In this document: in pieces, positions 4,420 through 39,395 of the stretch
How positions within the stretch are numbered: the first letter of the stretch is position 1
How the letters are laid out: each line of letters begins with the position of its first letter
DNA from: Escherichia coli
Lineage (GTDB): Bacteria; Pseudomonadota; Gammaproteobacteria; Enterobacterales; Enterobacteriaceae
Direction: 5' to 3' (one strand)
Assembly: GCF_003334305.1 (NCBI RefSeq)
Contig: NZ_QOWS01000018.1
Length of the DNA: 64,000 bases
Position numbers and translations under genes: made by a program
Notes under the pieces: generated by a model
What the model saw: only the letters and a program-made list of their open reading frames with translations
Databases searched by the model: none
What the model was told of the DNA's origin: nothing

Positions 4420-4464
4420 TGGTTTATATTTATCAGTCAATGTAATGTTATGAATTACGTCAGG

Positions 4465-25499: not shown

Positions 25500-25550
25500 A
25501 TCATTGTTCTCCTGTTCAATGAACCACTTAGATAAGCATAGTCCGAAGAT

Positions 25551-27194
25551 ATGAAGCTGCTAGTGACATACATCAGGTGGAGTACTAAAGAGCAAGACTC
25601 AGGAGACTCCTTAAGACGACAAACAAACCTCATTGATGCTTTCTACTCTAAGCACAAAAACGATTATTACCTTCTTCCTGCTCACAGATACGTTGATAAG
25701 GGTAAATCTGGTTTTCACCAGCAACATAAGAATCAAGGTTCTGACTTCAGACGTATGTTTGAAAATGTTATGTCTGGGGCTATTCCAGAAGGTTCCCTGA
25801 TTGTTGTAGAGAACTTTGACCGCTTCAGTAGGGCTGATATCGACACAGCTATAGATGATGTCAGGCAGATACTGAGGAAGGGAGTCTCTATACTGACTCT
25901 GGGAGATGGTGAACTCTACGACAAGTCAGCATTAACAGACCCTGTGAAGCTGATTAAGCACATCATCATAGCTGAGCGAGCACATCAGGAATCTCTTGTT
26001 AAACAAAAGCGTATAGCTCAGGTCTGGAACCATAAAACACAGCTTGCAAGAGAACTTAAGAAGCCTATGGGTAAGCAAGCCCCCGGATGGTTAGAGCTAT
26101 CAGAAGACGGTTCACACTACATCGTTGATGAAGATAAAGCGTCACTGGTGAATATCATCTATGACAAGCGTCTTTCTGGTATGTCGATGTTTGCTATCTG
26201 CAAATGGCTAAACGAACAAGGTTACCCGACCATTAATCAGCGTAAGGTCAGAATATCCAAGACTAAGAAACCGGATGGTAACTGGTCAGCTTTAAGCGTT
26301 AAACACATCCTGACTTCACGAAGTGTATTAGGTTACCTTCCCGCTAAGATTTCTACAGAAGACCGTAAAACAGTGTTACGTGAAGAAATTGAAGGGTTCT
26401 ATCCTCAGATTGTCACAGATTCTAAGTTTTACGCTGTACAGCAACTGTTAGAGGAAACAGGGAAGGGGAAAACATCCAGCGGTGACCACTGGTTATACGT
26501 GAACATACTGAAGGGGCTTATCCGTTGTAAGTGTGGGCTTGTAATGACTCCTACAGGGATACGTAAACCCGTTTATCAAGGTACTTACCGTTGCAATGGT
26601 AATAAGGAGTCCCGTTGTAGCTACGGTACAGTGTCCAGAAAGTTACTTGATACACAGCTTTGTAGTCGTCTGTTTAGCAAACTGTCACAGCTACACGATG
26701 AAGCTACCGATACAGCTAAATTAGATGAACTACAAAGAAGATTAAACACCGTTGATGGTGAACTGGAAAAACTCACTGAGACGCTGATACAGCTTCCTAA
26801 CATCACTCAGATTCAAGAAGCACTACGGGTTAAACAGGAAGAAAAAGATGAACTGATAGTTCAGTTATCACGAGAAAAGGCGAGGGTAAAATCTGTATCA
26901 AGCTTGGATTTAAGCGGTCTTGATATGGAGTCTGTAGAGGGGAGAACTGAAGCCCAGATTATCATTAAGCGTCTGGTGAAAGAGATTGTTGTTTCTGGTA
27001 ATGAAAAGCTGGTGGATATATATCTTCACAATGGAAATATGATTCGTGGTTTCCCTCTTGATGGTAAAGATGACCACACCTTAACGCTTGAAGAAGCAAC
27101 CGATGAGATGCAGTCACTAGATGATATGCTTATTTTTGGTGAACCAGTAACAAGGATTTATCCTGCTGGTGATATGGAAGAGGTGGACGCTTAG
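25551..27194 (+). CDS. Large serine recombinase (integrase candidate)
   Basis: 547 aa; N-terminal resolvase-type catalytic motif YIRWSTKEQ (catalytic Ser), Cys-rich zinc-ribbon region (CKCG...CNGNKESRC) and coiled-coil segment typical of large serine recombinases; gene abuts the junction. Confidence 0.85.
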
Positions 27195-27979
27195 TATTTT
27201 TTATTAGGGTTCACTGAGTACTTTTTAAGCTTTGAAGCTACTCGACCAGCGTTACTATTAGCATTGGTGACGTTGGTTTTTTCAGCTTCTGTTAAGTCTG
27301 AATAGTCCAGCTTCCAAGCCTTATTACACTTAATCTGAGCATCGAGAATATCATTTCTGATAGCTGGAGCGTAACCGGATACATCGCTAATACTCATTAG
27401 CTCTTTGCACGATAGCATAGGCGCGTTATTGCGTTCAGTGGTCACGTTACCTGCATTCTTCTTACTGGTCACACCACCATCATTCGTAGTCGCGGCTTTT
27501 CCAGTTGCAGCCGAGATATCAGTCTGCCCCACAACAGCTTTGAAGTTAATTTCCTGAAAAGTTAGTTGGATTCTTAATCCGTTTGAAATTCCAACATCTT
27601 TAGAGGCTTTAAAACTTGTGATAATGGAATCATCAATTTTAATTCCGTCTTTACAGATGACAGAAATAATCTGCTTCTGGTCACGCCAGTTTTCCAGAGT
27701 GTCAATGAAGTTCTCTACTAATTGACCCTGACGAGTTAATAGTAAGCTTCCTTCATAACCAACTACAACGACACCACTGATAGTGATTGTTCTGGGTGCT
27801 CTTTGAACATTATCTGTGACGGTTTGCCCTGATTGCATGTTCTGTGTAGTCACCTGCATAGGGCTATCAAATTCCATATTTTCAGTTGCTGATAAGGTTA
27901 AGAAGGCATCTACATTATCTCTTAAGTGGAAGTAAACGCCATCTTTGCCACTGTAGCGGATTTGATTGCTAAAAATCAT
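27191..27979 (-). CDS. Hypothetical protein, possibly distal-tail (Dit)-like phage tail component
   Basis: Follows the tape-measure-like gene in the canonical order; start taken at the second Met (MIFSNQ), which has an AAGGAG RBS; homology not verified. Confidence 0.35.
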
Positions 27980-28059
27980 TAAATTCTCCTTTGATTTCAA
28001 AGGCTTAGTGTATTTTAATCATTTTTAACCAAGCCTTTGATATATAAGTATTTTCTCTG

Positions 28060-28128
28060 TTAAGCGTGAGCTACGTAAATTCTATTTTTCAGTGCGGGTA
28101 TTAACTTTGCTTTATTCACGTAGAACAC
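28060..28128. repeat. Direct repeat copy A (69 bp, internal dyad GCTACGT...ACGTAGC) upstream of the Dit-like gene
   Basis: ttaagcgtgagctacgtaaattctatttttcagtgcgggtattaac... about 88 percent identical to copy B. Confidence 0.75.
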
Positions 28129-28135
28129 CGTTAAA

Positions 28136-30304
28136 TCAATCATCTTCTGGGAATGATGAACTTAATAACGTAGCTTCTGCATATTGGTCGTAGATATTAC
28201 TGCTAAAGGTCATAAAGCTGGTTTCATCTGGTTTAATGGCAACTTCACCACCAAGTGAAACTTTCACAGGCTCCTGAATACGCTTACTTAAAGCAGAGAT
28301 TTCATCCCTCAGACCCTGAATATCTGCACTCGTTAATGCTGAATCTTGCTTAATGTTGTTTAATTCTGGATGATTGAATCTTGCAATATTCATTGTGGCA
28401 TTGTTAAACAATTCACCCATTGAACTAAAAATTCTACTCCATCCTTCGTTAATCACATTCGGTTTATTAGGGTCACCAGAATACACAGGATTAAAGTCAC
28501 TACCCACACCTACCCCAGATGGATGCATATTAGCGTTTTTGACTACTTCCTGATTCATAAAATCCAGTGCTTTCTTCAATGCATATAAACCAAGAGTGAC
28601 ACCTCTGATTTGTGGAATCATTGAAGCTAATGCTAACGCTGTTTCATAACCGTCATCAGCATAACCAATTGCAAGAGCACTACCTACACCACCAGCTACA
28701 CCTTTCAGTTTTCCACCACCTTTACCAGTAGCTACCTGACCAGCCACCTGATTAGCTCTTGTACCTAACGTTGTGATTGCTCTTGTCAGGTTCATAACCC
28801 CTGTAGTAGCACTGAATAGTGTCTTTGCAGATAACGCTATAGCAAGACCTTTGACGAAGTTGATAAATCCATCACCGACTTCATCAAGTAGCTTTCGCTT
28901 AGTGTCATCAAGGCTGTAATAGGTCTTCTTAATCTGTAGAATCCAGCCTTCAAGGTGATTGTTAAAGATACGGATGTCATCTACACCAGCTTTAAGCATG
29001 TCGATAAGTCCACCGATAGCATCACCAGCGATAGAAGAACTCATACCCATTTCACTAAGCAGGTTACTCAGGCTGGATAAGAAGCCATTTAGCTCATCCT
29101 GTGAACCTGAGAAGATTTTCACCATCGTATCATCCCAGTTGTTAGCCAGTTTCCCTAAAGCTGTCTGAGTGCTCTTAGCGACTTCAGCCCAGCCACCCGC
29201 TTTATCAATCATCAAGCCCATCTGTTTAGCGACTTTAGGGAGAGTATCACTACTTAAAATCTTCCCGTCTTTCATCGCTTTATCAAGCTCTGTAGCAGTC
29301 ATACCCAGTGCTTCAGCGAATAGCTTAAATGCACCAGCCATACGGTCACCTAACTGACCACGAAGCTCTTCAGCCTGAATCTTGCCCTTGCTCGCCATCT
29401 GCTCAAATGCTTTCAAAATGCCGTTTAGCTCATCGTTAGAAAGCCCCATTAAGCGACTCATAGCCGTTGCATTACCAAATAGCTCCTGTGTCTGTTCCTG
29501 TGACATAGAACCCTGAGCACCTGCTGCAAACTTAGCGTAGCTTGATAGCCCTTCAGAGATATTAAGACCTGTCTTGTCTGCTAAATTTCGAATAAATACC
29601 TCAGCTTCAGATGCTTTATCACCAAGTACAAACTTAGCGGCTCTCTGTGCGGAATCTCGTTTAAGACCTGCATTCATGATGGCCTTGTAAGCGTTAAGAG
29701 CACCCATCACAGAGTAAAATGCACCAGATAACTTGATTGCATTGCTTGCAAGATTATTAAATGCGTCGCTTGTATTGTTAATGCTGGTGGATGTATGACC
29801 TTTAGCTTTAGCAATTGCTTCTCTGACTGAAGCATTTAACTGAGTCAGCTTCTCATTGAATTTTGAAGAATCCATTGACCCAGCTTTAGCAGATAGCCCG
29901 TAAAACTGAGATTTGATGTATTTCTGCAAAATAGGGTCAAAGCCTTTTAGCTTAGACATATTAGCTGAGTAAGCCGCTGTGATTGCTCTGTTGCCGCTAA
30001 TTCGTGGCTGTCTTGGTTGTCTAAGTGGCTTTAAAGTGTCATCAATTTCCGTTTTAATCTTAAACGCTCTAGTGTTTTTAAGACGCTGCTCAATCTTGGA
30101 AACAGTTTTATCGACATTCTTTTCCATTAGTTTGAGAGAATCATTTAAAGGCGTAGGGTTAACTCTGAATGCCTTATTTAGTCGTTTCTCAATTCTTGAT
30201 GCGATTTGCATCGTTTGTTTCTCGGCTTTTTCCAAGCCTTTTAAAACTTTCTGAGAGCTAAAACTTAGCTCAATCAAAAAATCATCAACTTTAAATTGTG
30301 CCAT
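28136..30304 (-). CDS. Tape-measure-like protein (phage tail length tape measure family candidate)
   Basis: 722 aa; coiled-coil N-terminus, central region resembling the tape-measure core (...AEELRGQLGDRMAGAFKLFAEALGMTATELDKAMKDG...), Gly-rich hydrophobic segments. Confidence 0.55.
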   Translation of the reverse strand: MAQFKVDDFLIELSFSSQKVLKGLEKAEKQTMQIASRIEKRLNKAFRVNPTPLNDSLKLMEKNVDKTVSKIEQRLKNTRAFKIKTEIDDTLKPLRQPRQPRISGNRAITAAYSANMSKLKGFDPILQKYIKSQFYGLSAKAGSMDSSKFNEKLTQLNASVREAIAKAKGHTSTSINNTSDAFNNLASNAIKLSGAFYSVMGALNAYKAIMNAGLKRDSAQRAAKFVLGDKASEAEVFIRNLADKTGLNISEGLSSYAKFAAGAQGSMSQEQTQELFGNATAMSRLMGLSNDELNGILKAFEQMASKGKIQAEELRGQLGDRMAGAFKLFAEALGMTATELDKAMKDGKILSSDTLPKVAKQMGLMIDKAGGWAEVAKSTQTALGKLANNWDDTMVKIFSGSQDELNGFLSSLSNLLSEMGMSSSIAGDAIGGLIDMLKAGVDDIRIFNNHLEGWILQIKKTYYSLDDTKRKLLDEVGDGFINFVKGLAIALSAKTLFSATTGVMNLTRAITTLGTRANQVAGQVATGKGGGKLKGVAGGVGSALAIGYADDGYETALALASMIPQIRGVTLGLYALKKALDFMNQEVVKNANMHPSGVGVGSDFNPVYSGDPNKPNVINEGWSRIFSSMGELFNNATMNIARFNHPELNNIKQDSALTSADIQGLRDEISALSKRIQEPVKVSLGGEVAIKPDETSFMTFSSNIYDQYAEATLLSSSFPEDD

Positions 30305-30322
30305 TGTTCATATTTCACCTCT

Positions 30323-30390
30323 TTAAGCGTGAGCTACGTAAATTCTATTTTTCAGTGTGGGTATTAGCTTTACAGATTTCACGTAGCACA
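30323..30390. repeat. Direct repeat copy B upstream of the tape-measure-like gene
   Basis: ttaagcgtgagctacgtaaattctatttttcagtgtgggtattagc...cacgtagcacac. Confidence 0.75.
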
Positions 30391-30505
30391 CATAGGATTC
30401 GATAGAAGACTATCTCATATACAAAAAAGGAGAGTTACCGATGTCACTCGATAATCTCTCCCGTAGATTTTTACCCAACCAATTCTATTAGAAGCTAATC
30501 TCAAA

Positions 30506-30721
30506 TTAATGGTAAACGTAAGAATACATCCCATCATCACCTAAAATCTGTGCGTCACATGGTAATTTATCTAAGCACCATGAAGGAATCTTACGTACCT
30601 TTGGTTTATGTGAGGTGATAACTTGATGCTGATTTTTAATTCGTAGCTTTGGTTTAGTCTGAAGCTTTAAGTTCTCACAAACAGACTTAATAAGTTCATA
30701 GCGTTCTGTTAAATCAATCAT
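30506..30721 (-). CDS. Hypothetical small basic protein
   Basis: 71-aa ORF co-oriented with neighbouring element genes; no recognisable motif. Confidence 0.4.
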   Translation of the reverse strand: MIDLTERYELIKSVCENLKLQTKPKLRIKNQHQVITSHKPKVRKIPSWCLDKLPCDAQILGDDGMYSYVYH

Positions 30722-30744
30722 TCACCACCTCTTTTAATTCATAG

Positions 30745-31455
30745 TTAAAGTGCCTTGCTATATTTCTGAGAAATCTTCACTAACTGCTCAATATCAGCCT
30801 GCATAGCAATCTTCTTCTGCGTTTCATATGCAGAAATAAGCTCTTTCATAGCCTGAAGCTCTCTTGAGAGATACAACTTAACATTTTCAAGTTGCTTGTT
30901 ACGTGATGCCAAGATGTTCTGTCTGGCAAGTTCAGCGAGTTCTTCATCGCTCTTATTAGTCGTGTAAATAAACTGACCAGCACCCCTTGAAGCTTTAACC
31001 ATCTTCACAATTCGATATCCAGCAGGAAGACTACTAATCACGGCTGCGACGTTTTCTTGAAAAGTACCAAAACCATCATTGTCTTCGTATGTGAAGTAAA
31101 CATACGGCTTCTGTGACAATTCATCCTGAATCTCAAATTCTGACGGCTCAATAGCTGATTGCATCAGGGTAACTTTACTGTAAGCATCATCTAGTTTAAT
31201 ACGCTGTGCTTTTAGCAGTGGGTAATATTCACGCTCAAGCTCAAGTAATGCTTCAGTTTTGCATACATCAGGCATCTCTTGAGGCTCAGGAGACACAAAG
31301 ATGATTTCCTTTGGTGACATTCGGATTTCTTGCTCAAGCTTAATTCTTTCATCGTGTTCTTTACGCTGAATAGCGATAGCTGGATGTTCAGTCTGTGGCG
31401 ACCAGTCACCGAAGCTATCAATCACTTTGCCATTAATGTAAATATCATTTGTCAT
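30745..31455 (-). CDS. Hypothetical protein with C-terminal coiled coil
   Basis: 236-aa ORF with a good RBS (aagagga); no recognisable domain. Confidence 0.5.
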   Translation of the reverse strand: MTNDIYINGKVIDSFGDWSPQTEHPAIAIQRKEHDERIKLEQEIRMSPKEIIFVSPEPQEMPDVCKTEALLELEREYYPLLKAQRIKLDDAYSKVTLMQSAIEPSEFEIQDELSQKPYVYFTYEDNDGFGTFQENVAAVISSLPAGYRIVKMVKASRGAGQFIYTTNKSDEELAELARQNILASRNKQLENVKLYLSRELQAMKELISAYETQKKIAMQADIEQLVKISQKYSKAL

Positions 31456-31933
31456 TGTTTTTTCCTCTTCTAAGCTAAAGTATTTCAGTTTTTAAAAAGC
31501 ACACCTGACAGCCTATCTAAACTTAGAAGAGACTTAAAAGGCGGTTTGCCAAGTATGCTTTTTAAAAGCTGAAAAAGCCCTAGATAACTAAAACGCTATA
31601 AAGGGCTAAGGTGAAGAAATTAAAACATCTAAAGGATTCAATAACGAATGAACAAAGACTTTTCGAGATAGCCTCTCAGGTTGTATAAGAGGCCATGTAG
31701 CGAAAAGCATTGCACCTTTCAGAATGTTCGGTATAGAACATACCTCACCAACTCAGAATATCCATCCATCGGATTATTGAAATAAATAAGAGAGAAATTC
31801 TCTCTATAATTAAAATTATGTCATGCTTAAGGTTATTTGTCAACAGCTTTTTAACAGATTGGTAACATTTATACTTTAATAGATGCACCTGCAATCATAC
31901 CAATCAACACAAAACAGAGAATCACCAATTCCA

Positions 31934-32257
31934 TTAATGCACCACCTTCGAATCCGTAACCAGAATATTATCGCTGTACAAAATTGCTATAGCCGCCTTG
32001 AGATATTTTTCAGGGCTAACGCTGTATTTGTTCGTTTGCTCGACAACCAATCTTTTCATGTTGCTGTCTTTAATTGGTAGCATCATTCGAGGCTCGTTAA
32101 ACTCCACCGACTGAATAAAGTCAGAGATGCTTTCCGCATTATCAGTCATTAACTCTAACAACTTATCAAAGTCAATGCTAACACCTACATCAGTGAAAGC
32201 CTGAATCATCATGGCGGTGTCGGTATCAATAAAAATCTGTAATTCGTAATTGTTCAT
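31934..32257 (-). CDS. Hypothetical acidic protein
   Basis: Start taken at the ATG (MNNYELQIF) preceded by AAGGAG; the track ORF begins at an upstream TTG. Confidence 0.45.
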   Translation of the reverse strand: MNNYELQIFIDTDTAMMIQAFTDVGVSIDFDKLLELMTDNAESISDFIQSVEFNEPRMMLPIKDSNMKRLVVEQTNKYSVSPEKYLKAAIAILYSDNILVTDSKVVH

Positions 32258-32412
32258 TTTTAAAATCTCCTTTTTACCAGACCTCCTCAATCGCTCTGTA
32301 ACGAGCTAAACAGTCTTTTTCAGGGGTAGCCTGTACAGTGGTATTACCCACCCTAAAATAAGATAGTTTTTTGCGTCAGAATGCGATTGAGAGCGTCTGA
32401 GAAGCTGTTTTT

Positions 32413-32700
32413 CTAATTTCTCTTAAAGTCTCGGACTTGCATAAGATTTTTTGGTCTGGTATCGGCTCTGTTACCATTTCGATGGATAATTTGCTTGTTG
32501 GATTGATAGCCATGATAAAGAAACCAGACAACATATTTCACGTAGAAAGTATATCGGCCTATATTAAATGTTTTGTTGCCGTAGTCGTCGGTGTTTATCG
32601 TGACTGACTCTCCATCAGACCAGCACAGGGAATCACTGGATTCATCATAGATAAGGTGTTCTGCAAAATATCTTCTAACATCTTCATTCCAAGGTTTCAT
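32413..32700 (-). CDS. HNH endonuclease-like protein
   Basis: 95 aa; C-terminal IIHRNGNRADTRPKNL resembles the HNH core (I-H-x-N/D-G-N-x-x-D-N-R-x-x-N-L) of phage HNH nucleases. Confidence 0.5.
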   Translation of the reverse strand: MKPWNEDVRRYFAEHLIYDESSDSLCWSDGESVTINTDDYGNKTFNIGRYTFYVKYVVWFLYHGYQSNKQIIHRNGNRADTRPKNLMQVRDFKRN

Positions 32701-32912
32701 AAAACCTCCTCACCCCAATAACCTAATTCAATCTTGTGACGCTCAAACCATTCCGGTTTAACTGCTGTTTTCAGTACTTCATTTGGGCCAATGGCTTTAA
32801 TGAAAATATCTTTTGAGTTATGGATGTCACCGAATCCGTTTCCTTCAATCAGGAGGTCGGAGATGTAGCGAATCATTTTATCCGTGTGGTATTCAAAGGT
32901 AACGCATAGCAT
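32697..32912 (-). CDS. Hypothetical protein
   Basis: 71-aa ORF with start/stop overlap to both neighbours (operon-like coupling). Confidence 0.4.
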   Translation of the reverse strand: MLCVTFEYHTDKMIRYISDLLIEGNGFGDIHNSKDIFIKAIGPNEVLKTAVKPEWFERHKIELGYWGEEVL

Positions 32913-33193
32913 TAAACCTCCAGAGACAGCTTGTGAATCTTAAGACTCAATAGACGGGCAATATCAATTTTAAAGCCGTTAAGTCCCTTCAAAGTATCTA
33001 AAGCGTCCTGAGTAATTCGGATGTGTTTACGACCTTTAGAGACTGGATATTTAAGTAAATCCGACTCAGTAACCTCTTTAGCAATTGCAAGCTGCATAAC
33101 AGTCTGATGAGGTAAGTTAGTAGCTCGTTTAATTCTGGCAAGCTCGTTAAAAGCTTCCTCTGAAATGCGGGTTAAAGTGTGTTTGTTTTTCAT
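32912..33193 (-). CDS. Putative ribbon-helix-helix DNA-binding protein
   Basis: N-terminal HTLTRISEEAFNELARIKRATNL pattern (beta-strand then helix) typical of Arc/MetJ/CopG-type regulators. Confidence 0.4.
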   Translation of the reverse strand: MKNKHTLTRISEEAFNELARIKRATNLPHQTVMQLAIAKEVTESDLLKYPVSKGRKHIRITQDALDTLKGLNGFKIDIARLLSLKIHKLSLEV

Positions 33194-33194
33194 T

Positions 33195-33749
33195 TTAAAA
33201 TTCCTCTGTAACTAAATACGGGTCAAATTCAAAGTCTGGTTCACTGGTTGTAAGGCTGATATTTCCAACTTCCGCATGATGATTAATTGTCTCAATAACT
33301 TTCATGCAAATAGTGGCTAAGTTAGCGCAATATTTATCACTTGGTAATTCGTAGCTAAGTCTGGTTGCTTGTCTTTGAAGATGGCTCGTCACTGTGCTTG
33401 AACTAATCTCATCAAGACTTCGCAGTAAATAAAAAACCTTCCGGTGATAATTATCTCTTCCAAGACTGCGACAAGTACCGATAATTACATCTTCAATTCG
33501 TGGCGGTAATTGCTCGTAAGAATCAAAGCCCATCAAGAAAGTTTTTAAAGTATTCTCTTTTTCTTTGCGTGCTGGCATAAATCTGTCTCGTGGCGTAATG
33601 CTACGAATGACCGCTTCAATGTTCTTACGTTCGGATTTGCTAAAGGTTGGGACTTCGTAGCTGGTGGGGGTGTCTGTGTGGCTGTAACCGTTGTGTCTGT
33701 TGCGTTCTCTTGATGCCTGAAGCATCGCTCTAAATTCTCTGTCGTTCAT
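33195..33749 (-). CDS. Hypothetical protein (first gene of the leftward operon)
   Basis: 184-aa ORF with no recognisable domain. Confidence 0.45.
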   Translation of the reverse strand: MNDREFRAMLQASRERNRHNGYSHTDTPTSYEVPTFSKSERKNIEAVIRSITPRDRFMPARKEKENTLKTFLMGFDSYEQLPPRIEDVIIGTCRSLGRDNYHRKVFYLLRSLDEISSSTVTSHLQRQATRLSYELPSDKYCANLATICMKVIETINHHAEVGNISLTTSEPDFEFDPYLVTEEF

Positions 33750-33850
33750 TCATAAGCTAGTCCTTATAATTGTTAATTCTCTGTTAACTTATATATACAA
33801 TACTAGCATTTTCAAAGACTAATGTCAAGCATTTTTTAACATTTCATTAA

Positions 33851-33866
33851 CATCTGTGGTATAATG
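33851..33866 (+). promoter_or_regulatory. Candidate extended -10 promoter (TGgTATAAT), rightward
   Basis: ctgTGgTATAATgg in the divergent region between the 184-aa gene and the small membrane ORF. Confidence 0.45.
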
Positions 33867-33992
33867 GTTCTATGGGGAGAGTAAAATATAAAGGCGTGGC
33901 TATGAGGTTTATTCGATAGGGGTTGGTACAAGCCCAACCAACCGAATCAACTATGTATGTCACATGGTATTGCATTGCACACAGGAAATTTA

Positions 33993-34169
33993 ATGGTAAA
34001 TCTCCCTCCTGAACTGGGGTCACCTGATGTATGGGCTGGTGGAGGTATCGGGCTGATTGCAGGTCTGTTACTCCGCTACGTCCTTGTCAGAGTGCTTGTT
34101 GTGTTCCGATTGTTCGGTCGTACATGGACGCTTGACCTTAAGGATAATGAGCACACAGAACCCCGTTAA
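33993..34169 (+). CDS. Small single-pass membrane protein (58 aa from the RBS-preceded ATG)
   Basis: Hydrophobic stretch GGGIGLIAGLLLRYVLVRVLVVF; AGGAAA RBS before the MVNLPPEL start. Confidence 0.35.
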   Translation: MVNLPPELGSPDVWAGGGIGLIAGLLLRYVLVRVLVVFRLFGRTWTLDLKDNEHTEPR

Positions 34170-34211
34170 GCTCCCTTCAAATCCCCCTGTACGAGATGGC
34201 ATAGGGGTGTC

Positions 34212-34250
34212 TTTAGCATTTTGTGCTATCTATTAAAAAATAACTTGACA
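34212..34250. promoter_or_regulatory. Operator-like dyad TAGCA-N5-TGCTA followed by ACTTGACA (module 1)
   Basis: tttagcattttgtgcta ... acttgacagaa. Confidence 0.45.
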
Positions 34251-34289
34251 GAACCGGAAAGCTGTATCTATCAGGTATTCACCTCTCTG

Positions 34290-34460
34290 ACAGTAACTTC
34301 TAAAAGTTCTTATTTTTCAATGAGTTGTAATCACCCATATATAGAGAACTGACAAGTCTCTTCACAATTAACTCTGTAACCTTAACAGTGATTTCTAAAA
34401 ATGCTTATTTTTCAATAAGTTGTAATTAGCCATATATAGAGAACTGACAAGTCTCTTCAC
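34290..34460. repeat. Two tandem copies of a 76-bp direct repeat (period 95 bp) in ORF-free DNA
   Basis: acagtaacttctaaaagttcttatttttcaatgagttgtaatcacccatatatagagaactgacaagtctcttcac versus the second copy, about 88 percent identical. Confidence 0.8.
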
Positions 34461-34777
34461 GGAGAACTTCCTGGACTCACTAAGATACAAGGCGATAACC
34501 CCAGAAAGGGAGAGCCACCTTCTAATTGGTATTGTTATGAGGATGCTTCATCCGAATCATCTACCAATCCCTAAACCGACTTCTTAAACAATCTTTACAG
34601 ACCCCGTTCACCAGTCTCAATATTTTTATTTCTCGCTCTTCGTTTGTTGCTCGTTTCTATTATTGAGGGGGTTTGAAAAACCTCTGTAAAATAACCCTTC
34701 CAGTAAAAAGCGAATAACCCCAGAGAGGGGGAATCGCCTCTTTAACATTCTCATAATCAGTGCTCTATATGAGAATT

Positions 34778-35446
34778 TCAGCCCAACCTTTGAACAATCT
34801 TGTAAGTGGTGCTTAGAGGCATTCTTAGCGATTCTGCGATGCTCTTGACGGATTGCCCTTGGCCATGCAGTTTAATCAGCCTGTCAAGCGTCTGTGCATC
34901 GTGTATATGAGGTCTTCCACGTAAACCACCCCTGTTAACCACGGCAAGTAAAAGCATTGTGTCGCCACAATAGATTGTTTGTGTAACTTCAACCTTCGGT
35001 TTACGGGGTGTGTTCCTGTATATCAAAACGCAACTTGCAAACGGTGAACGCACTACAACACCTTTCTTCCCTGCTGGTGGAAGGTATTTGACTGCTCGGT
35101 GTAACGTTCGAATCTCATGCAGAAAGGGGTTTGTATATACACACCGAAGCCAGTAAGTTGTCTTTGACCTGTGCGGAACCAGACATACACACACATCAGC
35201 TTCATGGGATTTTAGGAGGAACCTTTCAGCCATGCTAAACGGCGGGTTAACGAAGACCCGTTCACCAACCCATGATTGATTGTGAATATCATCGGTGAAC
35301 CGTGGCAACAATGCGTCATGCTCAGTTGCAGCACCATCCATCGAAAAACCAAATTCACGGTGTAGGTTACGAAATAAACGATACGGTGTACGCCAGTCAT
35401 CAGAACCACCATGATAACGACCGACATTGATTATTGGATGTGACAC
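34778..35446 (-). CDS. Dam-family (phage-type) DNA N6-adenine methyltransferase with a C-terminal HTH extension; GTG start
   Basis: N-terminal DWRTP and catalytic NPPF motifs of the phage Dam family; C-terminal about 45 aa (GRPHIHDAQTLDRLIKLHGQGQSVKSIAESLRMPLSTTYKIVQRLG) resemble the GRP-linker plus HTH of resolvase/invertase proteins. Confidence 0.7.
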   Translation of the reverse strand: MSHPIINVGRYHGGSDDWRTPYRLFRNLHREFGFSMDGAATEHDALLPRFTDDIHNQSWVGERVFVNPPFSMAERFLLKSHEADVCVCLVPHRSKTTYWLRCVYTNPFLHEIRTLHRAVKYLPPAGKKGVVVRSPFASCVLIYRNTPRKPKVEVTQTIYCGDTMLLLAVVNRGGLRGRPHIHDAQTLDRLIKLHGQGQSVKSIAESLRMPLSTTYKIVQRLG

Positions 35447-35485
35447 AAGCGAAGCGCCCCTCTTAGTATATTTCTTAATCGTCTC

Positions 35486-35546
35486 TTTAGCATTTAGTGC
35501 TTTTTGTTAAGTTTAGCACTTTTTGCTAAAGACAAAACACTTGACA
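35486..35546. promoter_or_regulatory. Operator-like dyads (TTTAGCA-N6-TGCTAAA and a second half-degenerate copy) followed by ACTTGACA (module 2), upstream of the methyltransferase gene
   Basis: tttagcatttagtgct and tttagcactttttgctaaa, then acttgacaaaa. Confidence 0.5.
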
Positions 35547-36020
35547 AAATGGTAAGATTGTTCACATGACCTTACTTAACAGATTCTTAAGAGCTTTGAA
35601 ACGAACTGTTTAACAAGGTCACTACCTCTGGTCTTATCGTTCCCTCTCTTCTTGGTAGTTCTGTTAAGTATCTTTTCAGGTATCTCTTACAGTCACTGTT
35701 AAGATAGAACCTACCTTCGGTTTCATGGTTCTCTTCCTCCCGTTAAATATCCCTTCACAGTCAGACTAAATAACACCTCTGTAGTTTCTTGGTAGAATCT
35801 TTCAAGGTAACTTAACTCTGAGTTTATGAAGTTGACCTTAGTCAATGTTTGTGAAGGTGTTACAGAGCATGTTCTCTAGGTCTGTGTAGCTCACTAAGCG
35901 AGAGAGGGGATATGTGACCATAGGGGAACCCCTCCTGTTAAAAGTTTCTTGATGTTATCATCACAATATGTATAATCACCAACTGTACAGACACCTTAAC
36001 GGTTTCTCTACACCTCACTA

Positions 36021-36089
36021 TGGCTAGGTAGGGTATGGTTTAGCTTGGTACGGCTAGGTTAGGTCTGGTTTGGTTAGGTATGGGTGGAT
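36021..36089. repeat. Degenerate G/T-rich short tandem repeat (GGYTAGGT-like units)
   Basis: tggctaggtagggtatggtttagcttggtacggctaggttaggtctggtttggttaggtatgggtgg. Confidence 0.6.
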
Positions 36090-36120
36090 TGTCGTAGCCA
36101 CGTTAAAAATCGACTTATAG

Positions 36121-36145
36121 GGACTCTTTCGGGAGTCCTTTTTAG
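36121..36145 (+). terminator. Intrinsic terminator, plus orientation, with no upstream plus-strand ORF
   Basis: ggactc-tttcgg-gagtcc stem-loop followed by ttttt. Confidence 0.6.
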
Positions 36146-36347
36146 TTTGTATAAAATCTGTACAGGAGTTATCAGGCTTCTAAAATTTTTATAAAAAATA
36201 ATCAGACCTCTTCTAAGCCTCTTCAACCAAATCTTTCGAAAATATCTGACAGATGTCTGTAGCTGCTAAGTACCCGTCACACCAGCTATGTGACCCCCTT
36301 GGCAAAAAAGCCAAATATCAGCTACATCCATGTAACTATTCAGTAAC

Positions 36348-36899
36348 TTATTTAGCAAGTCTGTAATAAGTTGCTCTAGAGATTCCTAACTCTTCCTGAA
36401 TCTGCAACCTCGTCTTACCTTGTGAAATAAGCGTCTGTACAGCCTCTGAAGAAGCCTTTACAGGCCTCCCCATATGTACCCCTTCAGCTTTAGCACGTTC
36501 AATACCAGCCTTTCTACGCTCTGCTATCAAGCTTCTTTCAAGCTGTGCCAACGTTGACATAATGCCTAACATTGCTTCACCCATAGCGCTTGATAAGTCA
36601 AACCCTTCTCTAAGGCTGATAACTGTCACACCTTTAGCCTGTAGCGCTTTAACCGTTGATAACACATCAATTGTGTCACGTCCAAGACGGTCTACAGCTA
36701 CCACAACTACGGTGTCACCTTCTCGTGCATAAGCTAACAAACTACTGAAACCGTTTCTTAAAGAAGCTTTGACAGAACCACTGACAGCTTCATCAGTGAA
36801 CCATTTAGCAATGTTGTACCCTGCCTCTTCAATTTGCATTTGCTGGTTAGTGATGGATTGGTCATCTGTACTCACCCTGCAATATCCAAGTATCGCCAT
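36348..36899 (-). CDS. Small serine recombinase (resolvase/DNA-invertase family)
   Basis: 183 aa; N-terminal catalytic motif GYCRVSTDDQ, resolvase core, C-terminal GRP linker plus HTH. Confidence 0.85.
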   Translation of the reverse strand: MAILGYCRVSTDDQSITNQQMQIEEAGYNIAKWFTDEAVSGSVKASLRNGFSSLLAYAREGDTVVVVAVDRLGRDTIDVLSTVKALQAKGVTVISLREGFDLSSAMGEAMLGIMSTLAQLERSLIAERRKAGIERAKAEGVHMGRPVKASSEAVQTLISQGKTRLQIQEELGISRATYYRLAK

Positions 36900-36912
36900 A
36901 CATCCCCCTTAG

Positions 36913-37040
36913 AAGTCTCAAAAGTTAGTCTCATAAGTTTAGCTGTCTCATAATCCAAAAACAACCTTTTGAGACTACTTGAGGGTGCATTCTACCGTTA
37001 CGTTGAAAGTGTCTCAAAAGGAAGTCCTTTTAAGACTGGT
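36913..37040. promoter_or_regulatory. Iteron-like array of GTCTCAWAAG motifs (at least four direct, two inverted) immediately upstream of the small recombinase gene
   Basis: gtctcaaaag, gtctcataag, gtctcataat, inverted ttttgagact, gtctcaaaag, taagact within about 125 bp. Confidence 0.6.
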
Positions 37041-37416
37041 TATGAAGGAGCTATGAAGATTTTAGGAGGGTAACTATAACCATCACTTTCTAACTTTCAC
37101 GTAGGAAATCGTTAAGTTTCTTGATAGTTACACCATGTGACCAACTATCTATATATCGTTATATAGCCCTGTATATAACACTTTTCTAGGAGTCGAGAGA
37201 GGGACGACTAACACGATACAGTTTACCCTGAAAAGAGACTTCACAGATTCTCTATATATTTCAATAAGTTAGGCTAAAAAGAGACTATACCGATACTGTA
37301 TAGAATCTGTGTAGAATTGCTTAGATACTTGGAAAAATGCCTTTAAATTGAATAGGTACTAACCTGTTTATGTCCTGTTATTAACAGGTAGTTGAATGTA
37401 CGTGTTTAGCTATGTA

Positions 37417-37438
37417 AAAGCACCAGAACTTTAGCCAT
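37417..37438 (-). other. attR core candidate (AAAGCAC) plus the displaced native wrbA start codon and first five codons
   Basis: Minus strand reads ATG GCT AAA GTT CTG GTG C..., the recalled native wrbA 5' end, now separated from the gene body by the element. Confidence 0.6.
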
Positions 37439-37810
37439 TTCTAACCACTCCTCGTGTTATCTCTATTCCGTAGCGATTCGCTACCACTTATTTAAAGATA
37501 AGACGTCCTTTTCAGAGTGCAAATTTCACAACCACTTATTTGATTTATAACAACTTTCACAAGCACGTAATTTTGTCGCAAAATGACACATTTTTATCTC
37601 ATCGCGTTTTTTTAATCATAAGAGCGGCTTATGGATAATTATTGGAGATGATATCTATTCTCGCTAAGAAGCTGTTGCAGGATATTACCAAACGCGGGTC
37701 TGCCCGCGTCAGTTCACTAAGCTTAGTCCCACGTAGCGAAAATATGGCAGCCGCCATACGCCGCGTTAATTCTATGCAATATGATGTCTATACCCAGACG
37801 GAGGTCAGTA

Positions 37811-37984
37811 ATGGCAAACCATCGAGGCGGTTCCGGCAATTTTGCAGAAGACCGCGAAAGAGCATCAGAAGCAGGTAAAAAAGGTGGACAGCACAGCGGG
37901 GGGAATTTCAAGAATGACCCGCAGCGCGCATCTGAAGCAGGTAAAAAAGGTGGCAAGAGCAGTCACGGTAAAAGTGACAACTAG
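37811..37984 (+). CDS. ymdF: Stress-induced small protein YmdF (KGG-repeat protein)
   Basis: MANHRGGSGNFAEDRERASEAGKKGG... with GGAGG RBS; 57 aa. Confidence 0.85.
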   Translation: MANHRGGSGNFAEDRERASEAGKKGGQHSGGNFKNDPQRASEAGKKGGKSSHGKSDN

Positions 37985-38066
37985 CCGGACTAATCAGTGA
38001 CGAATGCATTTTTGTCTGAAGCTCGTCAAAAAGTCATCACCGCCGGTTACCCCGGCGGTTTTCTGT

Positions 38067-39395
38067 TTATGGCTCCTGATGAACAACTTCTGGCGGTGGA
38101 ACGTCAACCAACCTTCTGCTTAACAACGCATTGAGTAAAATCGCGCCAAAGGTTGCTGTACCGATCCCTCCCAACGTAAAACCGCCCAGCGTGAGAGCAA
38201 AATCACCCGCGCCCAGCACTAAGGTTACTGCGACCATAATCAAATTACCGTTCTGGCTTAAATCGACACGGTTTTGTACCCAGATCCTTGCGCCTGCGAC
38301 GGCAATCAGCCCGAACACAACAATTGAAGCACCACCAATCACCGGTGCAGGAATGGTATGGATCAGCGCGCCAAATTTCGGCGAAAAGCCCAACAGCATG
38401 GCGATGACGGCAGCAGCAACAAACACCAGCGTCGAGTAGACTTTGGTCACGGCCATCACACCGATATTTTCAGCATAGGTGGTCACGCCGCTACCGCCGA
38501 CAGAGCCGGAAAGCATCGTTGCCAGACCATCGCCTACGAATGCCCGCCCCATATACGGGTCCATATTGCGTCCGGTCATCCCGGCGACTGCCTTGAGATG
38601 ACCTAAGTTTTCCGCCACCAGAATCACCGCCACGGGCGCAATCAGCATCATTGCCTGACCATTAAAAGCAGGAGTGGAAAAATGTGGCAAACCGAACCAG
38701 GCAGCATGGCTGACGAGAGTAAAATCGACGGCTTTTCCCAGCCCTAAAACGTTGGTCATCACGCCATACAGCAGACAGGCGACAATTAATCCTACGAGAA
38801 TCAATAACCGCTGGATCATGCCACGGGTAAACACCGCCACCAGCCCAATACACAGCACCGTCATTACCGCCATCCAGCTATCAAAGGCCGAAGCCGATAC
38901 ACTTTTCACTGCGATAGGCGCTAAGTTCAGGCCAATCGCCATCACCACCGCACCCGTCACCACCGGCGGCATTAGTCGTTCAATCCAGCGTGTACCAATT
39001 TTCATCACCACCAGGCCAATGACGGTATAAACCAGCCCACAGGCGATAATCCCGCCCAGCGCAATGCTGATATTCGGGTTAATGCCCTGACCGTTAAAGC
39101 CCGTCGCGGCAATCACCACGCCGACAAAAGCCGCGCTGGAACCGAGATAACTGGGGACGCGCCCGCCGGTAATAAAGAAAAACAGTAACGTGCCGATCCC
39201 CGACATTAAAATGGAAAGATTGGGATCCAGCCCCATCAGAATCGGCATTAACACCGTCGCGCCAAACATCGCCACCGCGTGTTGAACGCCCATTACTGCC
39301 GTCTGAGCAAACGGCAATCGTTCATACGGCGCGACCACGCCGCTCTCTGTAGAGGTCGATTTTAACTGCCAGTGAGGAAAACCGAACATTGCCAT
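38067..39395 (-). CDS. rutG: Pyrimidine permease RutG
   Basis: 442-aa NCS2-family transporter; rut operon synteny. Confidence 0.9.
   Translation of the reverse strand: MAMFGFPHWQLKSTSTESGVVAPYERLPFAQTAVMGVQHAVAMFGATVLMPILMGLDPNLSILMSGIGTLLFFFITGGRVPSYLGSSAAFVGVVIAATGFNGQGINPNISIALGGIIACGLVYTVIGLVVMKIGTRWIERLMPPVVTGAVVMAIGLNLAPIAVKSVSASAFDSWMAVMTVLCIGLVAVFTRGMIQRLLILVGLIVACLLYGVMTNVLGLGKAVDFTLVSHAAWFGLPHFSTPAFNGQAMMLIAPVAVILVAENLGHLKAVAGMTGRNMDPYMGRAFVGDGLATMLSGSVGGSGVTTYAENIGVMAVTKVYSTLVFVAAAVIAMLLGFSPKFGALIHTIPAPVIGGASIVVFGLIAVAGARIWVQNRVDLSQNGNLIMVAVTLVLGAGDFALTLGGFTLGGIGTATFGAILLNALLSRRLVDVPPPEVVHQEP

Follow-up and report, generated by a model that had tools for sequence, protein, structure and literature searches.

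A Candidate Phage-Derived Non-Coding RNA Gene with a GGU Pentamer Array in an Integrative Element of Escherichia coli

The Locus and Its Features

The window analysed here is a stretch of Escherichia coli DNA of 64,000 nucleotides, and the locus of interest is a 0.9-kb segment that lies between two minus-strand genes of an integrative element. The anatomy, strand, conservation, phage homology and repeat register of this locus were computed. Its features are listed below, with positions counted from the first letter of the window.

25479-37416, no strand assigned: integrative element of 11.9 kb in the 5' end of wrbA, with bounds taken from the empty K-12 site
34778-35446, minus strand: Dam-type methyltransferase gene, an accessory gene, left flank of the segment
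35447-36347, plus strand: ORF-free segment, read as a region of plus-strand non-coding transcription
35484-35501/35515-35532, no strand assigned: imperfect inverted dyad with 18-nt arms, upstream of the methyltransferase gene on the minus strand
35529-35558, plus strand: candidate promoter P1 (AAGACA, 18 nt, TG-n-TAAGAT), a block invariant in all copies
35575-35703, plus strand: long imperfect hairpin in the P1 leader, from the RNAalifold consensus
35706-35732, plus strand: hairpin capped by C(UUCG)G, from alignments of element copies
35949-35976, plus strand: sigma-70-type promoter P2 (TTGATG, 16 nt, TATAAT), a 10/12 match in the promoter scan
35983-36143, plus strand: predicted small RNA of about 160 nt, delimited by P2 and the terminator
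36021-36085, plus strand: array of 13 in-phase N-G-G-U-N pentamers, the last unit being UGGGU
36084-36114, plus strand: H-type pseudoknot with stems S1 and S2 and an A-rich loop 3
36120-36143, plus strand: putative intrinsic terminator (GGGACUC, UUUCG, GGAGUCC, then U5)
36150-36197, plus strand: conserved block after the terminator, holding TATAAAATCTGT, P3 and AAAATTTTTATAAAA
36198-36347, no strand assigned: non-coding DNA 3' of the small recombinase gene, with partly conserved hairpins
36348-36899, minus strand: small serine recombinase gene, right flank of the segment

The initial annotation had found no reading frame on either strand of the segment, and this was borne out. The few ORFs present are just 30-50 aa long and are broken by indels in homologues, and no conserved ORF was found when the element copies were aligned. 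A decayed gene was therefore rejected. No annotated feature lies under the segment in any E. coli genome among the matches listed, and neither tRNA nor tmRNA was detected within 25000-38500.

The left and right margins of the segment belong to exchangeable cassettes. The inverted dyad is duplicated at 34207-34236 according to the repeat scan, and it is missing from the copies that carry no methyltransferase gene (L002, L007, L008 and L010). As judged from these alignments, the dyad is part of the accessory methyltransferase cassette and lies outside the conserved RNA unit. The annotation had joined it to a TTGACA sequence as one module; both are present as described and the TTGACA block is invariant, while the dyad goes with the methyltransferase. 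On the other side, the sequence from 36308 onwards is part of a cassette that is exchanged in variant L009. Between these margins and directly after the terminator, the conserved block contains the promoter-like sequence P3 (TGTACA-16-TAAAAT), and both TATAAAATCTGT and AAAATTTTTATAAAA recur in non-coding DNA of Felix O1-like phages.

A Predicted Plus-Strand RNA Gene Between P2 and a Terminator

The predicted small RNA begins with a 37-nt leader, which is followed by the GGU pentamer array, then the pseudoknot and finally the terminator. Its promoter P2 reads TTGACA or TTGATA, 17 nt and TAAGAT in other copies, and its hexamers and spacing are kept in all eight distinct variants despite turnover of the sequence. 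The terminator scan placed a hairpin at 36119-36140 with nine pairs (four of them G-C), a 4-nt loop and a following TTTTT; in sequence terms this is an intrinsic (Rho-independent) terminator, a G+C-rich stem-loop followed by a U-run. Its arms are conserved or compensated in 8/8 distinct element variants, and in two of them, L002 and L008, the loop carries an insertion of 33 nt while both arms are intact. A plus-strand terminator with no ORF upstream of it, the observation that had first drawn attention to the locus, is thus confirmed.

The pseudoknot between array and terminator pairs GUGG (36084-87) with CCAC (36098-101) in S1 and GUCG (36091-94) with CGAC (36111-14) in S2, and its A-rich loop 3 reads GUUAAAAAU. 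Covariation across the copies is extensive: 97.2% of cells are paired, against 29-43% in slid controls, and compensatory, two-sided changes occur at 8/9 pairs. A covariance model of the 40-nt module tail, R1, has its sole match in the window at 36077-36116 (60.3 bits, E 2e-13), a score to be read with the window copy being among the 16 training sequences, so that independent support comes from the pair counts and from blastn against phages. Minimum-free-energy folding of the RNA alone gave Z-scores of -1.6 and -2.2, which were uninformative.

The plus strand was assigned because of the conserved promoter, the U-run after the hairpin, the UUCG loops and the G-U pairs. We regard it as highly probable that the locus is a real plus-strand non-coding RNA gene of phage origin. 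The initial annotation had proposed a non-coding transcript of roughly 0.5 kb; the plus-strand non-coding locus stands, resting on the conserved promoter, the U-run and the pseudoknot covariation, and the discrete unit is shorter, about 160 nt from P2. The segment encoding it occurs in 153 of 5426 complete E. coli genomes and is annotated in none of them, and these 153 are drawn from 545 genomes that match any part of the 0.9-kb segment. It belongs to no known RNA family as far as Rfam covers them, since neither the whole window at the gathering threshold nor 33700-37800 at E values up to 5 gave a relevant match.

Two functions had been suggested for such a transcript. An antisense role found no support: no annotated gene overlaps the RNA, and its complementarity to the element and to the Felix O1-like phage garuso is at chance level except at its own and homologous loci. 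A protein-sequestering RNA is plausible, for a strict 5-nt GGU register with free spacers looks like an RNA with many protein-binding sites.

The Upstream Candidate Promoter and Its Leader

Further upstream, P1 was assigned by reading the sequence, and the consensus promoter scan did not list it. Its invariant block contains TTGACA at 35541-35546. In variant L154, this promoter and leader precede a plus-strand HNH-AP2 gene. The long leader hairpin pairs CTTAACAG with CTGTTAAG, CTTAAGAG with CTCTTACAG and ACTACC with GGTAGT; seven of its pairs are kept through two-sided changes in one divergent lineage, and many are G-U pairs on the plus strand. Part of this hairpin is homologous to an ORF-free, CTTAACA-rich region of Felix O1-like phages (garuso 49666-49724). 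The outer stem of the UUCG-capped hairpin that follows also covaries between copies, as AGAACC/GGTTCT, GATAC/GTATC and GTAAC/GTTAC. With this long structured leader, P1 (at about 35541) could add read-through transcripts of about 0.58 kb to those from P2.

The GGU Pentamer Array

The initial annotation had described a GGYTAGGT-like repeat tract upstream of the terminator. The G/T-rich tract is real, and its unit was mis-described, as the true period is 5 (N-G-G-U-N); the tandem repeat finder TRF gave a period of 15. Twelve of the 13 consecutive units fit N-[G/A/U]-G-[U/C]-N, where the maximum in 20,000 dinucleotide-preserving shuffles of the tract was 9, and the array is unique within the window on both strands. 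The spacer bases vary from one element copy to another, and array lengths differ by multiples of 5 in 7/8 element variants. A GGU register kept while spacers drift, with indels in fives, is a signature of purifying selection.

The same register governs the arrays of Felix O1-like phages. In 54 such arrays with fixed flanking sequences, the length ranges from 44 to 92 nt and follows steps of 5 in 52. G occupies position 3 in 96% and position 2 in 79% of units, U occupies position 4 in 88%, and positions 1 and 5 are near random. The unequal conservation of the two Gs fits a sequence-specific read-out better than a G-quadruplex. Two DNA-site readings of the tract were rejected by inspection: a cluster of E. 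coli Chi sites, an exact Chi being impossible in register, and a cluster of T7 primase sites, which require C where position 5 of the array is not C.

Arrays of this kind extend well beyond one phage group. We found 107 heterogeneous GGU arrays in at least 60 unrelated viral contigs that span 29-68% G+C, with lengths of 8-42 units. The upstream ORF reads in the same sense as the G-rich strand in 85 cases versus 6. A ribosome-binding site and start codon follow 32/107 arrays, and a hairpin with a T-run follows 26/107 within 80 nt; in one closely examined contig (L039-L042), the arrays come after the upstream reading frame has ended and before a strong terminator hairpin. Rfam at the gathering threshold gave nothing relevant for 12 array-bearing viral loci. 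All-against-all clustering of the ORFs from 63 loci yielded no real shared family that could represent a partner protein beside the arrays. The two largest ORF clusters are apparently ORFs that overlap the arrays themselves, to judge from the coordinates of one member. The uncultivated array-rich phages had no match in the isolate collection, and our literature search found no report of GGU arrays in phages.

Homology to Felix O1-like Phages

By blastn, the RNA module of the window matches 93 phage records, nearly all of them Felix O1-like (Felixounavirus), with a best E value of 4e-11, and the module-tail covariance model has three matches in phage garuso. Felix O1-like phages carry three to five array-pseudoknot modules per genome within about 1.5 kb, in the leaders of early operons, where each is positioned between the early promoter and the first gene of the operon. 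The proteins encoded downstream belong to PHROGs without assigned function, except one HTH regulator. These modules are undescribed: where annotated at all, they are labelled 'repeat_region' or fall within a hypothetical protein, and Rfam returned nothing relevant for them at E values up to 10. The Felix O1 genome paper leaves the passage of many early terminators and the timing of transcription unexplained, and it is these leaders that the array-pseudoknot modules occupy (PMC3185647).

Sequence comparison indicates that the element RNA is a copy of the last array-pseudoknot module of Felix O1-like early-operon 5' leaders. With the phage type A module the relationship is one of true homology: the AUGGGU junction, S1, L2 and L3 are identical and the array architecture is shared, while S2 matches exactly in element variants L010 and L023 and shows compensating changes in the window copy. 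Within the module family, which is defined in the present analysis, the window RNA has the array (13 in-phase units, where at least 8 are called for) and the tail, with an (A/U)UGG junction and an H-type pseudoknot with A-rich loop 3. It departs from the family in its setting, as no plus-strand gene follows its terminator to make it an early-operon 5' leader. The phage modules thus stand in cis ahead of operons, several to a genome, and type A leads into its operon without a terminator directly after it, whereas the element has a single module with its own promoter, a strong terminator and no gene after it.

The homology extends to the left part of the segment, which corresponds to a 1.6-kb ORF-free region of garuso. 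Of the 31 CTTAACA copies in the half of that genome that was scanned (40.8 kb), 17 lie in this region. In the window, four CTTAACA copies cluster at 35505-35703, and the whole window has 16 where 8.7 are expected.

The Host Element as a Candidate Satellite

The element encodes a large serine recombinase, a tape-measure protein, a Felix O1-type protein of 269 aa and several small ORFs, together with an HNH endonuclease, the accessory Dam methyltransferase and the small serine recombinase. The large serine recombinase (547 aa, phrog_95) lies at one end. Only two genes are tail-related, both of Felix O1 type: the 269-aa protein has 72-73% identity to the Felix O1 protein encoded next after the tape-measure gene, and for the tape-measure protein itself the identity to its Felix O1 counterpart is 29-33%. 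No capsid, terminase or replication gene was recognised in the element, where small unannotated ORFs could hide such functions. The 236-aa, 184-aa and other element proteins had no sequence match in Pfam, PHROG function, NCBIfam, PADLOC or PDB, and PADLOC gave no match for 10 ORFs of the element or its surroundings.

Copies of the element occupy at least four chromosomal sites (wrbA, yciI, mdtG and yecE). Their right arm is a mosaic: the methyltransferase cassette may be present or absent, L009 has a different recombinase cassette, and in L154 an HNH-AP2 gene replaces the sRNA-plus-recombinase unit. A Hin-like invertible segment at the recombinase gene was considered and rejected, because the oppositely oriented L009 recombinase is 44% identical, which denotes a cassette swap and not an inversion.

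Like satellites in the sense of PLE, PICI and P4, the element has an integrase and specific chromosomal sites, is without a full set of virion, packaging and replication genes, and carries helper-related tail genes and non-coding modules. Its gene content, namely the Felix-O1-like tail genes and the want of recognised capsid, terminase and replication genes, together with its occurrence at no fewer than four sites, makes it a candidate Felixounavirus satellite. A search of the literature found no report on satellites of Felix O1.

Comparison with Known Systems

A close parallel in the presumed way of working is the TRAP-binding segment of the Bacillus trp leader, in which 11 (G/U)AG triplets spaced 2-3 nt apart are wrapped around an 11-mer ring. 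The array shares with it a 3-nt core with about two free spacer bases, a repeat every 5 nt or so, around a dozen units in all, one nearly invariant core position flanked by weaker ones, and a place in an untranslated leader that adjoins a terminator. It differs in its core, which is GGU and not GAG or UAG, in a spacing of strictly 2 nt and in its range of 8-42 units. The resemblance is not one of membership, for the TRAP triplet does not describe positions that are G in 96% and U in 88% of cases. We know of no TRAP homologue in E. coli.

Sponge RNAs such as CsrB and RsmZ have, like the element RNA, their own promoter and terminator and many copies of a short G-rich motif, and they titrate a protein, as is proposed for the element RNA. 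They present GGA in hairpin loops at irregular spacing, whereas the element RNA presents GGU in a strict, linear, single-stranded 5-nt register. The Csr and Rsm models of Rfam had no match at E values up to 5 in 33700-37800, so the RNA is not placed among these sponges.

Among regulatory RNAs encoded by satellites, SviR (from the PLE of Vibrio cholerae) and the CI RNA (from P4) influence the expression of helper or satellite genes. PLE resembles the element in having a large serine recombinase, and it is a parasite of a virulent myovirus. SviR and CI act by base-pairing; the element RNA is instead a homologue of a helper leader with no complementarity above chance, and it has no sequence or Rfam relationship to either. 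Its pseudoknot resembles the preQ1-I aptamer and other H-type pseudoknots in its size (about 31 nt), its 4-bp S1, its S2 of 4-6 bp and its A-rich L3 directed toward the S1 groove. It differs from preQ1-I in its loop sequences, in having no queuosine genes downstream and in always following a GGU array, and RF00522 (preQ1-I) matched neither 33700-37800 (E values up to 5) nor the phage modules (E values up to 10). In type III toxin-antitoxin systems, the antitoxin is built of tandem repeats of about 34-36 nt and lies upstream of a toxin endoribonuclease gene. A ToxI-like antitoxin RNA was rejected on the 5-nt period, the lack of a plus-strand gene after the array and the lack of a PADLOC match among the 10 ORFs.

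Proposed Function and Alternatives

From these features we infer transcription, a binding factor and an effect on the phage as follows. P2 would drive the 160-nt RNA, with its short leader, 13 pentamers, pseudoknot and terminator. An oligomeric RNA-binding factor may read the array in 5-nt steps, with one protomer per GGU and two free spacer bases, in a mode likened to that of TRAP on (G/U)AG triplets, and the pseudoknot may anchor or protect the 3' side. The free-standing copy of the leader module would then titrate or recruit the factor of the helper, which could couple the element to the early gene expression of an infecting phage or interfere with it. To this reading as a whole, a phage-derived RNA gene of a candidate satellite together with its mechanism, we assign a probability of about 0.4. 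The decoy mechanism itself, with the element RNA mimicking a helper leader RNA, is the doubtful part, and we lean against it somewhat. The array neighbourhoods of different phages share no protein family from which a binding protein could be picked out. A range of 8-42 units would misfit a ring protein of fixed size, and the element RNA could be a passenger gained by recombination with a phage. The phage arrays stand in cis, either within 5' leaders or after a stop codon and ahead of a terminator, a position that favours a function in cis, such as RNA stability, pausing or termination control, over a trans-acting sponge.

That last point leads to the alternative we take most seriously while judging it unlikely: a module that acts in cis and has no function in trans. 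Array, pseudoknot and terminator would then form a 3'-end or insulator cassette that prevents transcripts from P1 and P2 from extending antisense into the recombinase gene, toward which the efficient-looking terminator indeed faces. The array might slow RNA polymerase, help the pseudoknot or terminator to fold, or protect the RNA 3' end, possibly through quadruplexes of two G-tetrads plus a U-tetrad with 2-nt loops. The strong sense-strand bias of the arrays in unrelated phage contigs, their cis placement before terminators (as in L039-L042) or before translation starts, and the finding of neither trans targets nor a partner protein all agree with it. A terminator alone would insulate, however, which leaves the presence of P2 in all variants and an in-register array of 13 units unexplained; G at 79% in position 2 against 96% in position 3 is unexpected for G-tetrads, and the type A phage module runs on into its operon with no terminator. 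A role at the DNA level, rather improbable in our view, would make the segment a replication origin or packaging signal from the helper phage. With iteron-like CTTAACAG repeats and a promoter giving a G-rich transcript that persists as an R-loop primer, an element that has no replication or terminase genes of its own could be copied or packaged by Felix O1 machinery. The clustered CTTAACA copies, the homology to the garuso region and a transcript that is G-rich on the non-template strand suit this idea, as does the genome of Felix O1, for which short terminal repeats are inferred and no small terminase subunit is reported (PMC3185647). Against it, the pseudoknot covaries, pairs of the pseudoknot and the leader hairpin include G-U, a strong terminator right after the array argues against primer extension, three to five modules within about 1.5 kb are too many for origins, and the CTTAACA enrichment over the whole window is modest. 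DNA-level and RNA-level roles could also coexist in different parts of the 0.9 kb.

The remaining alternatives deny the module a present role or give its hairpin another one. The segment could be a relic, non-coding DNA carried over from a Felix O1-like phage with no present function in the element, as the mosaic right arm and the restriction of the RNA gene to a minority of the genomes matching part of the segment might suggest. Relics would not be expected to keep pseudoknot, terminator arms and promoter hexamers invariant or compensated among copies with no more than 73-87% overall identity, nor to hold the GGU register while spacers drift and indels come in fives, and we consider this very improbable. 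Hardly credible is a recombination site (res, hix or att-like) of the small serine recombinase in place of the terminator, a possibility that the initial annotation had named as one that would overturn its own view. The hairpin does adjoin the recombinase gene, its arms form a 7-bp palindrome, and an imperfect inverted repeat (36331-36350/37113-37132) flanks that gene. Yet a crossover site would not tolerate the 33-nt insertions found between intact arms in two natural variants, the U-run is present on just one strand, the hairpin moves together with the RNA module rather than with the recombinase, the oppositely oriented recombinase of L009 is a replacement and not an inverted copy, L009 lacks the left arm of the flanking repeat, and no second copy of the hairpin was found to make up a paired res or hix site.

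Significance

Felix O1-like phages are classic typing phages and current candidates for therapy. If the reading of the element as a candidate satellite is true, it would be the first satellite or defence island specific to the Felix O1-like group in E. coli. To our knowledge, few RNA-based interactions between satellites and helpers are known. Two linked claims can be put forward together, tentatively and with the odds against their both holding. One is that heterogeneous in-register (N-G-G-U-N)n arrays may constitute a class of phage RNA element that is widespread and has so far gone undescribed; a conserved factor of the host or the phage would read them five nucleotides at a time, or else they would adopt a periodic GGU fold. 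The other is that the wrbA element may be the first satellite-like parasite of virulent phages of the Felix O1 type, with a free-standing RNA mimic of a leader module of its helper. More broadly, the 5-nt GGU register points to a general mode of RNA recognition that is uncharacterised in phage biology.

A Conserved, Computationally Defined RNA Gene in a Mobile Element

The locus in the ORF-free segment at 35447-36347 is established by computation as a conserved, phage-derived, plus-strand RNA gene of defined architecture, whose transcript is predicted. The segment is 100% identical in Escherichia coli strain A7, and K-12 is without the insertion that holds it. Against MG1655, the left flank stops at 25478 and the right flank restarts at 37417, with a 10-bp overlap in the first wrbA codons; these ends define an element of 11.9 kb at 25479-37416. 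In strain A7 the start of the annotated wrbA (24894-25499) is supplied by element DNA, the two junction regions being 25479-25560 and 37390-37416, and wrbA is an integration site for some Stx phages too. In other strains the element adjoins yciI or lies within mdtG or yecE with its gene order unchanged, and has therefore moved recently. Its genes, from left to right, are as follows.

Genes of the element
First from left: large serine recombinase, 547 aa
Second: 269-aa protein
Third: tape-measure protein, 722 aa
Right of the tape-measure gene: several small proteins with no assigned function
Right of the small-protein genes: HNH endonuclease
34778-35446, minus strand: methyltransferase (optional), Dam domain and resolvase-type HTH
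36348-36899, minus strand: small serine recombinase, Resolvase domain and HTH_7

Felix O1-like phages encode, directly following their tape-measure gene, a protein with 72-73% identity to the element's 269-aa protein; the element's own tape-measure protein is 29-33% identical to its Felix O1-like counterparts, and the two genes are neighbours in element and phage alike. No capsid, terminase or replication genes were recognised among the element genes. These Felix-type tail genes, the gene types missing and the occupation of several sites together suggest a satellite-like parasite of Felixounaviruses. In outline this candidate satellite is similar to the PLE of Vibrio cholerae; a literature search found no paper describing it.

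Several parts of the element are exchangeable. The methyltransferase ORF is a fusion (Dam domain at residues 15-144, resolvase-type HTH_7 at 177-217), and its cassette (~34540-35527), which has a copy of the dyad and TTGACA module on each side (34207-34253 and 35481-35549), is missing from several element copies. The small serine recombinase is likewise a swappable cassette (window 36308-37090; 5749-6637 in the copy of strain FAM21845), exchanged in FAM21845 for an oppositely oriented resolvase-family gene with 44% identity; inversion around the recombinase is ruled out at that level of identity, which indicates replacement. In strain F070, a plus-strand HNH-AP2 homing-endonuclease-like gene stands in place of the small-RNA-plus-recombinase unit. 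In E. coli O111:H- 11128 (1596588-1615443), the right arm (leader, small RNA, recombinase) is joined via IS1203 to a lambdoid prophage, so the element's non-coding modules occur in composite prophage regions too. The segment is matched in 523-545 genomes, most of which hold sub-modules only.

Further left, a strong plus-strand promoter-like site at 33836-33865 (TTAACA, 18 nt, TATAAT with TG; 11/12 matches) diverges from a minus-strand one at 33828-33800 that precedes a 184-aa gene. Downstream of the former, a 70-aa ORF with a hydrophobic helix (33957-34169), unannotated in strain A7 and annotated in other copies as the 62-aa hypothetical protein WP_000247742.1, could encode a small membrane toxin or holin-like effector. 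The element's other ORF-free stretch contains 76-nt direct repeats (34290-34365 and 34385-34460), 91% identical, 95 nt apart and kept in other copies. Elsewhere in the window, Rfam reports the cspA thermoregulator (plus strand, 162.7 bits) and Ysr251 (minus strand, 188.3 bits) at 9144-9566 and 55536-55729, ordinary chromosomal features unrelated to the segment.

Architecture of the Locus

The gap between the two minus-strand genes is ORF-free, as first described: only ORFs of 30-50 aa occur there, broken by indels in homologues, and no feature is annotated under the match in any genome among those listed. Nine element copies (73-100% identity) were aligned, and the following plus-strand features were delimited.

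Plus-strand features of the segment
35528-35568, plus: block AAAGACAAAA...TTGACAAAATGGTAAGATTGTTCACAT, invariant across the aligned copies; putative promoter P1
35575-35703, plus: long imperfect hairpin of the leader, many G-U pairs, seven pairs kept by two-sided changes in one divergent lineage
35706-35732, plus: UUCG-capped hairpin, outer stem covarying
35949-35976, plus: P2, candidate sigma-70-type promoter from a scan (TTGATG, 16 nt, TATAAT)
From ~35983, plus: predicted small RNA (37-nt leader, array, H-type pseudoknot, terminator)
36084-36087 with 36098-36101, plus: pseudoknot stem S1, GUGG with CCAC
36091-36094 with 36111-36114, plus: pseudoknot stem S2, GUCG with CGAC
Pseudoknot loop L3, plus: GUUAAAAAU
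36120-36143, plus: intrinsic terminator

P1 is our own reading of the invariant block, which the consensus scan leaves unlisted. In the variant of strain F070, this block and the leader lie upstream of the plus-strand HNH-AP2 gene, which makes plus-strand transcription from P1 plausible. P2 reads TTGACA or TTGATA, 17 nt, TAAGAT in other copies, its hexamers and spacing being retained in 8/8 distinct variants despite sequence turnover. Of the dyad and TTGACA previously noted upstream, both are present; the dyad is part of the methyltransferase cassette and shares its absence from several copies. The terminator was recovered by the scan (36119-36140 plus a T-run).

The repeat tract is likewise real but was mis-described as GGYTAGGT-like: in register it consists of 13 N-G-G-U-N pentamers (36021-36085). 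The pattern N-[G/A/U]-G-[U/C]-N holds for 12 of these, and 20,000 dinucleotide-preserving shuffles of the same stretch never exceeded 9. TRF gives a period of 15 for the tract, and no other such array occurs on either strand across the 64 kb. A set of 54 different Felix-like phage arrays, bounded by conserved flanks alone, spans 44-92 nt, with 52/54 lengths falling on 5-nt steps. With the register set from the 3' end, G occupies position 3 in 96% and position 2 in 79%, position 4 has U in 88% and C in 11%, and positions 1 and 5 carry <0.1 bit. At the loci examined, flanks are near-identical between phages and arrays vary throughout in spacer bases and unit number; in the element copies spacers also vary, and 7/8 variants have an array length divisible by 5. 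This amounts to a periodic constraint, a 3-nt core plus two free bases per unit.

Phage Origin and the Pseudoknot

With the segment as query, blastn matched 93 of 50,697 phage records, the 93 being nearly all Felix O1-like; among the matches listed, all fall inside 36019-36114 (best E 4e-11). The phage homologues are placed downstream of a strong early promoter and ahead of the first operon gene; the Felix O1-like phage garuso has three array-pseudoknot modules, and other phages have as many as five. Every module tail measures exactly 40 nt and the tails align gap-free, S1 appearing as GUGG/CCAC, GUAG/CUAC or AAGG/CCUU and S2 as GUCG/CGAC, GGUAG/CUACC, GGCAG/CUGCC, GUCUCA/UGAGAC or AUCGGA/UCCGAU. 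In this alignment 97.2% of cells are paired, with two-sided changes at 8/9 pairs, against 29-43% when partners are slid 1-3 columns; independent pairing events are fewer than cells because the module types are paralogues.

A covariance model of the tail matches once in the window (60.3 bits), three times in garuso and once in E. albertii, and on 100 other array-bearing viral loci it is significant in two Felix O1-like contigs only. A search of 100,044 species-representative genomes found the pseudoknot motif in Escherichia albertii alone. The window copy is nearest to the phage type A module, directly before the operon, and two other element copies match that module exactly in S2. The preQ1-I aptamer has the same topology, but its model gives no match here.

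Arrays in Other Viral Contigs

IMG/VR, scanned for exact runs of seven GGT spaced 5 nt apart, yielded at least 120 stretches. Counted by strict in-phase extension, requiring half or more of the units to be distinct and leaving out simple microsatellites, the matches listed contain at least 107 heterogeneous arrays of 8-27 units in at least 60 loci, on contigs of 29-68% G+C; the longest array seen has 42 units. Among the matches listed, the G-rich strand agrees with the coding sense of the closest upstream ORF 85 times versus 6 and with that of the downstream ORF 61 times versus 29, by crude ORF calling and with same-contig arrays being non-independent. One 189-kb contig has at least eight arrays, each beginning at the apparent end of an upstream reading frame and most followed by AGGGU and a terminator hairpin. 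An Rfam scan returned no matching RNA family for array-bearing viral loci, no protein family common to array neighbourhoods was found, and no isolate phage matched either of two array-rich contigs compared.

In two contigs of uncultivated phages (L149, L150), a GGU array is followed directly by the tRNA T-arm signature GGTTCGATTCC, Rfam reporting no tRNA there at the gathering threshold. The densest arrangement seen is in contigs L035 (6113-6497) and L152 (3395-3842), where 6-7 GGU arrays run head to tail with only AGGCUAAUGGGU between, then a long hairpin.

Proposed Function and Alternatives

Our best hypothesis is that an oligomeric RNA-binding factor would read the GGU units, one per protomer, and that the element's free-standing RNA would compete with the helper's leader modules for this factor, or recruit it. 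The unequal core conservation, the free spacers and the dedicated promoter kept by the element favour this read-out; it is weakened because the phage arrays sit in cis, their unit number varies and no candidate protein was found. One GGU per protomer is proposed by analogy with TRAP, which reads triplets. In its proposed mode of working the RNA resembles TRAP-binding leaders and Csr/Rsm sponges, but it differs from them in motif, in Rfam model and, as far as is known, in protein. The nearest precedents as satellite-encoded RNAs, SviR of PLE and the CI RNA of P4, both base-pair with targets, and a complementarity check found no evidence of such action here.

One main rival is a module that acts only in cis, at the 3' end or as an insulator, and that may form a string of GGU quadruplexes; the cis position of the phage arrays would favour it. 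A second concerns the left part of the segment, which may work at the DNA level as an origin or packaging signal borrowed from the phage. Felix O1-like phages have, where genes converge, a 1.6-kb ORF-free region (garuso 48952-50603; 3950-5600 of the extracted locus) to which part of the leader is homologous. Short blocks of the garuso region recur in three separate non-coding stretches of the element, and the region holds 17 copies of CTTAACA(G/A) in both orientations, several at 11-12-bp spacing (17/31 of the CTTAACA copies in the 40.8-kb half of the genome scanned); it may itself serve as an origin, in packaging or as an array of regulator-binding sites. A third rival, that the segment is a relic, is argued against by its conservation pattern. 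A fourth, the terminator hairpin as a recombination site, a possibility raised at the outset, is opposed by a natural 33-nt insertion that separates its arms and by the FAM21845 recombinase, a replacement and not an inversion.

The observation in the initial annotation as a whole is confirmed, and its interpretation, a non-coding transcript with a potential antisense-regulatory or protein-sequestering role, is partly supported. We would provisionally place the RNA among multi-site protein-binding or decoy RNAs. That the array represents a distinct, widespread and undescribed phage RNA class, and its host element a new satellite family, is a reading to which we assign a substantial probability, about 35%.
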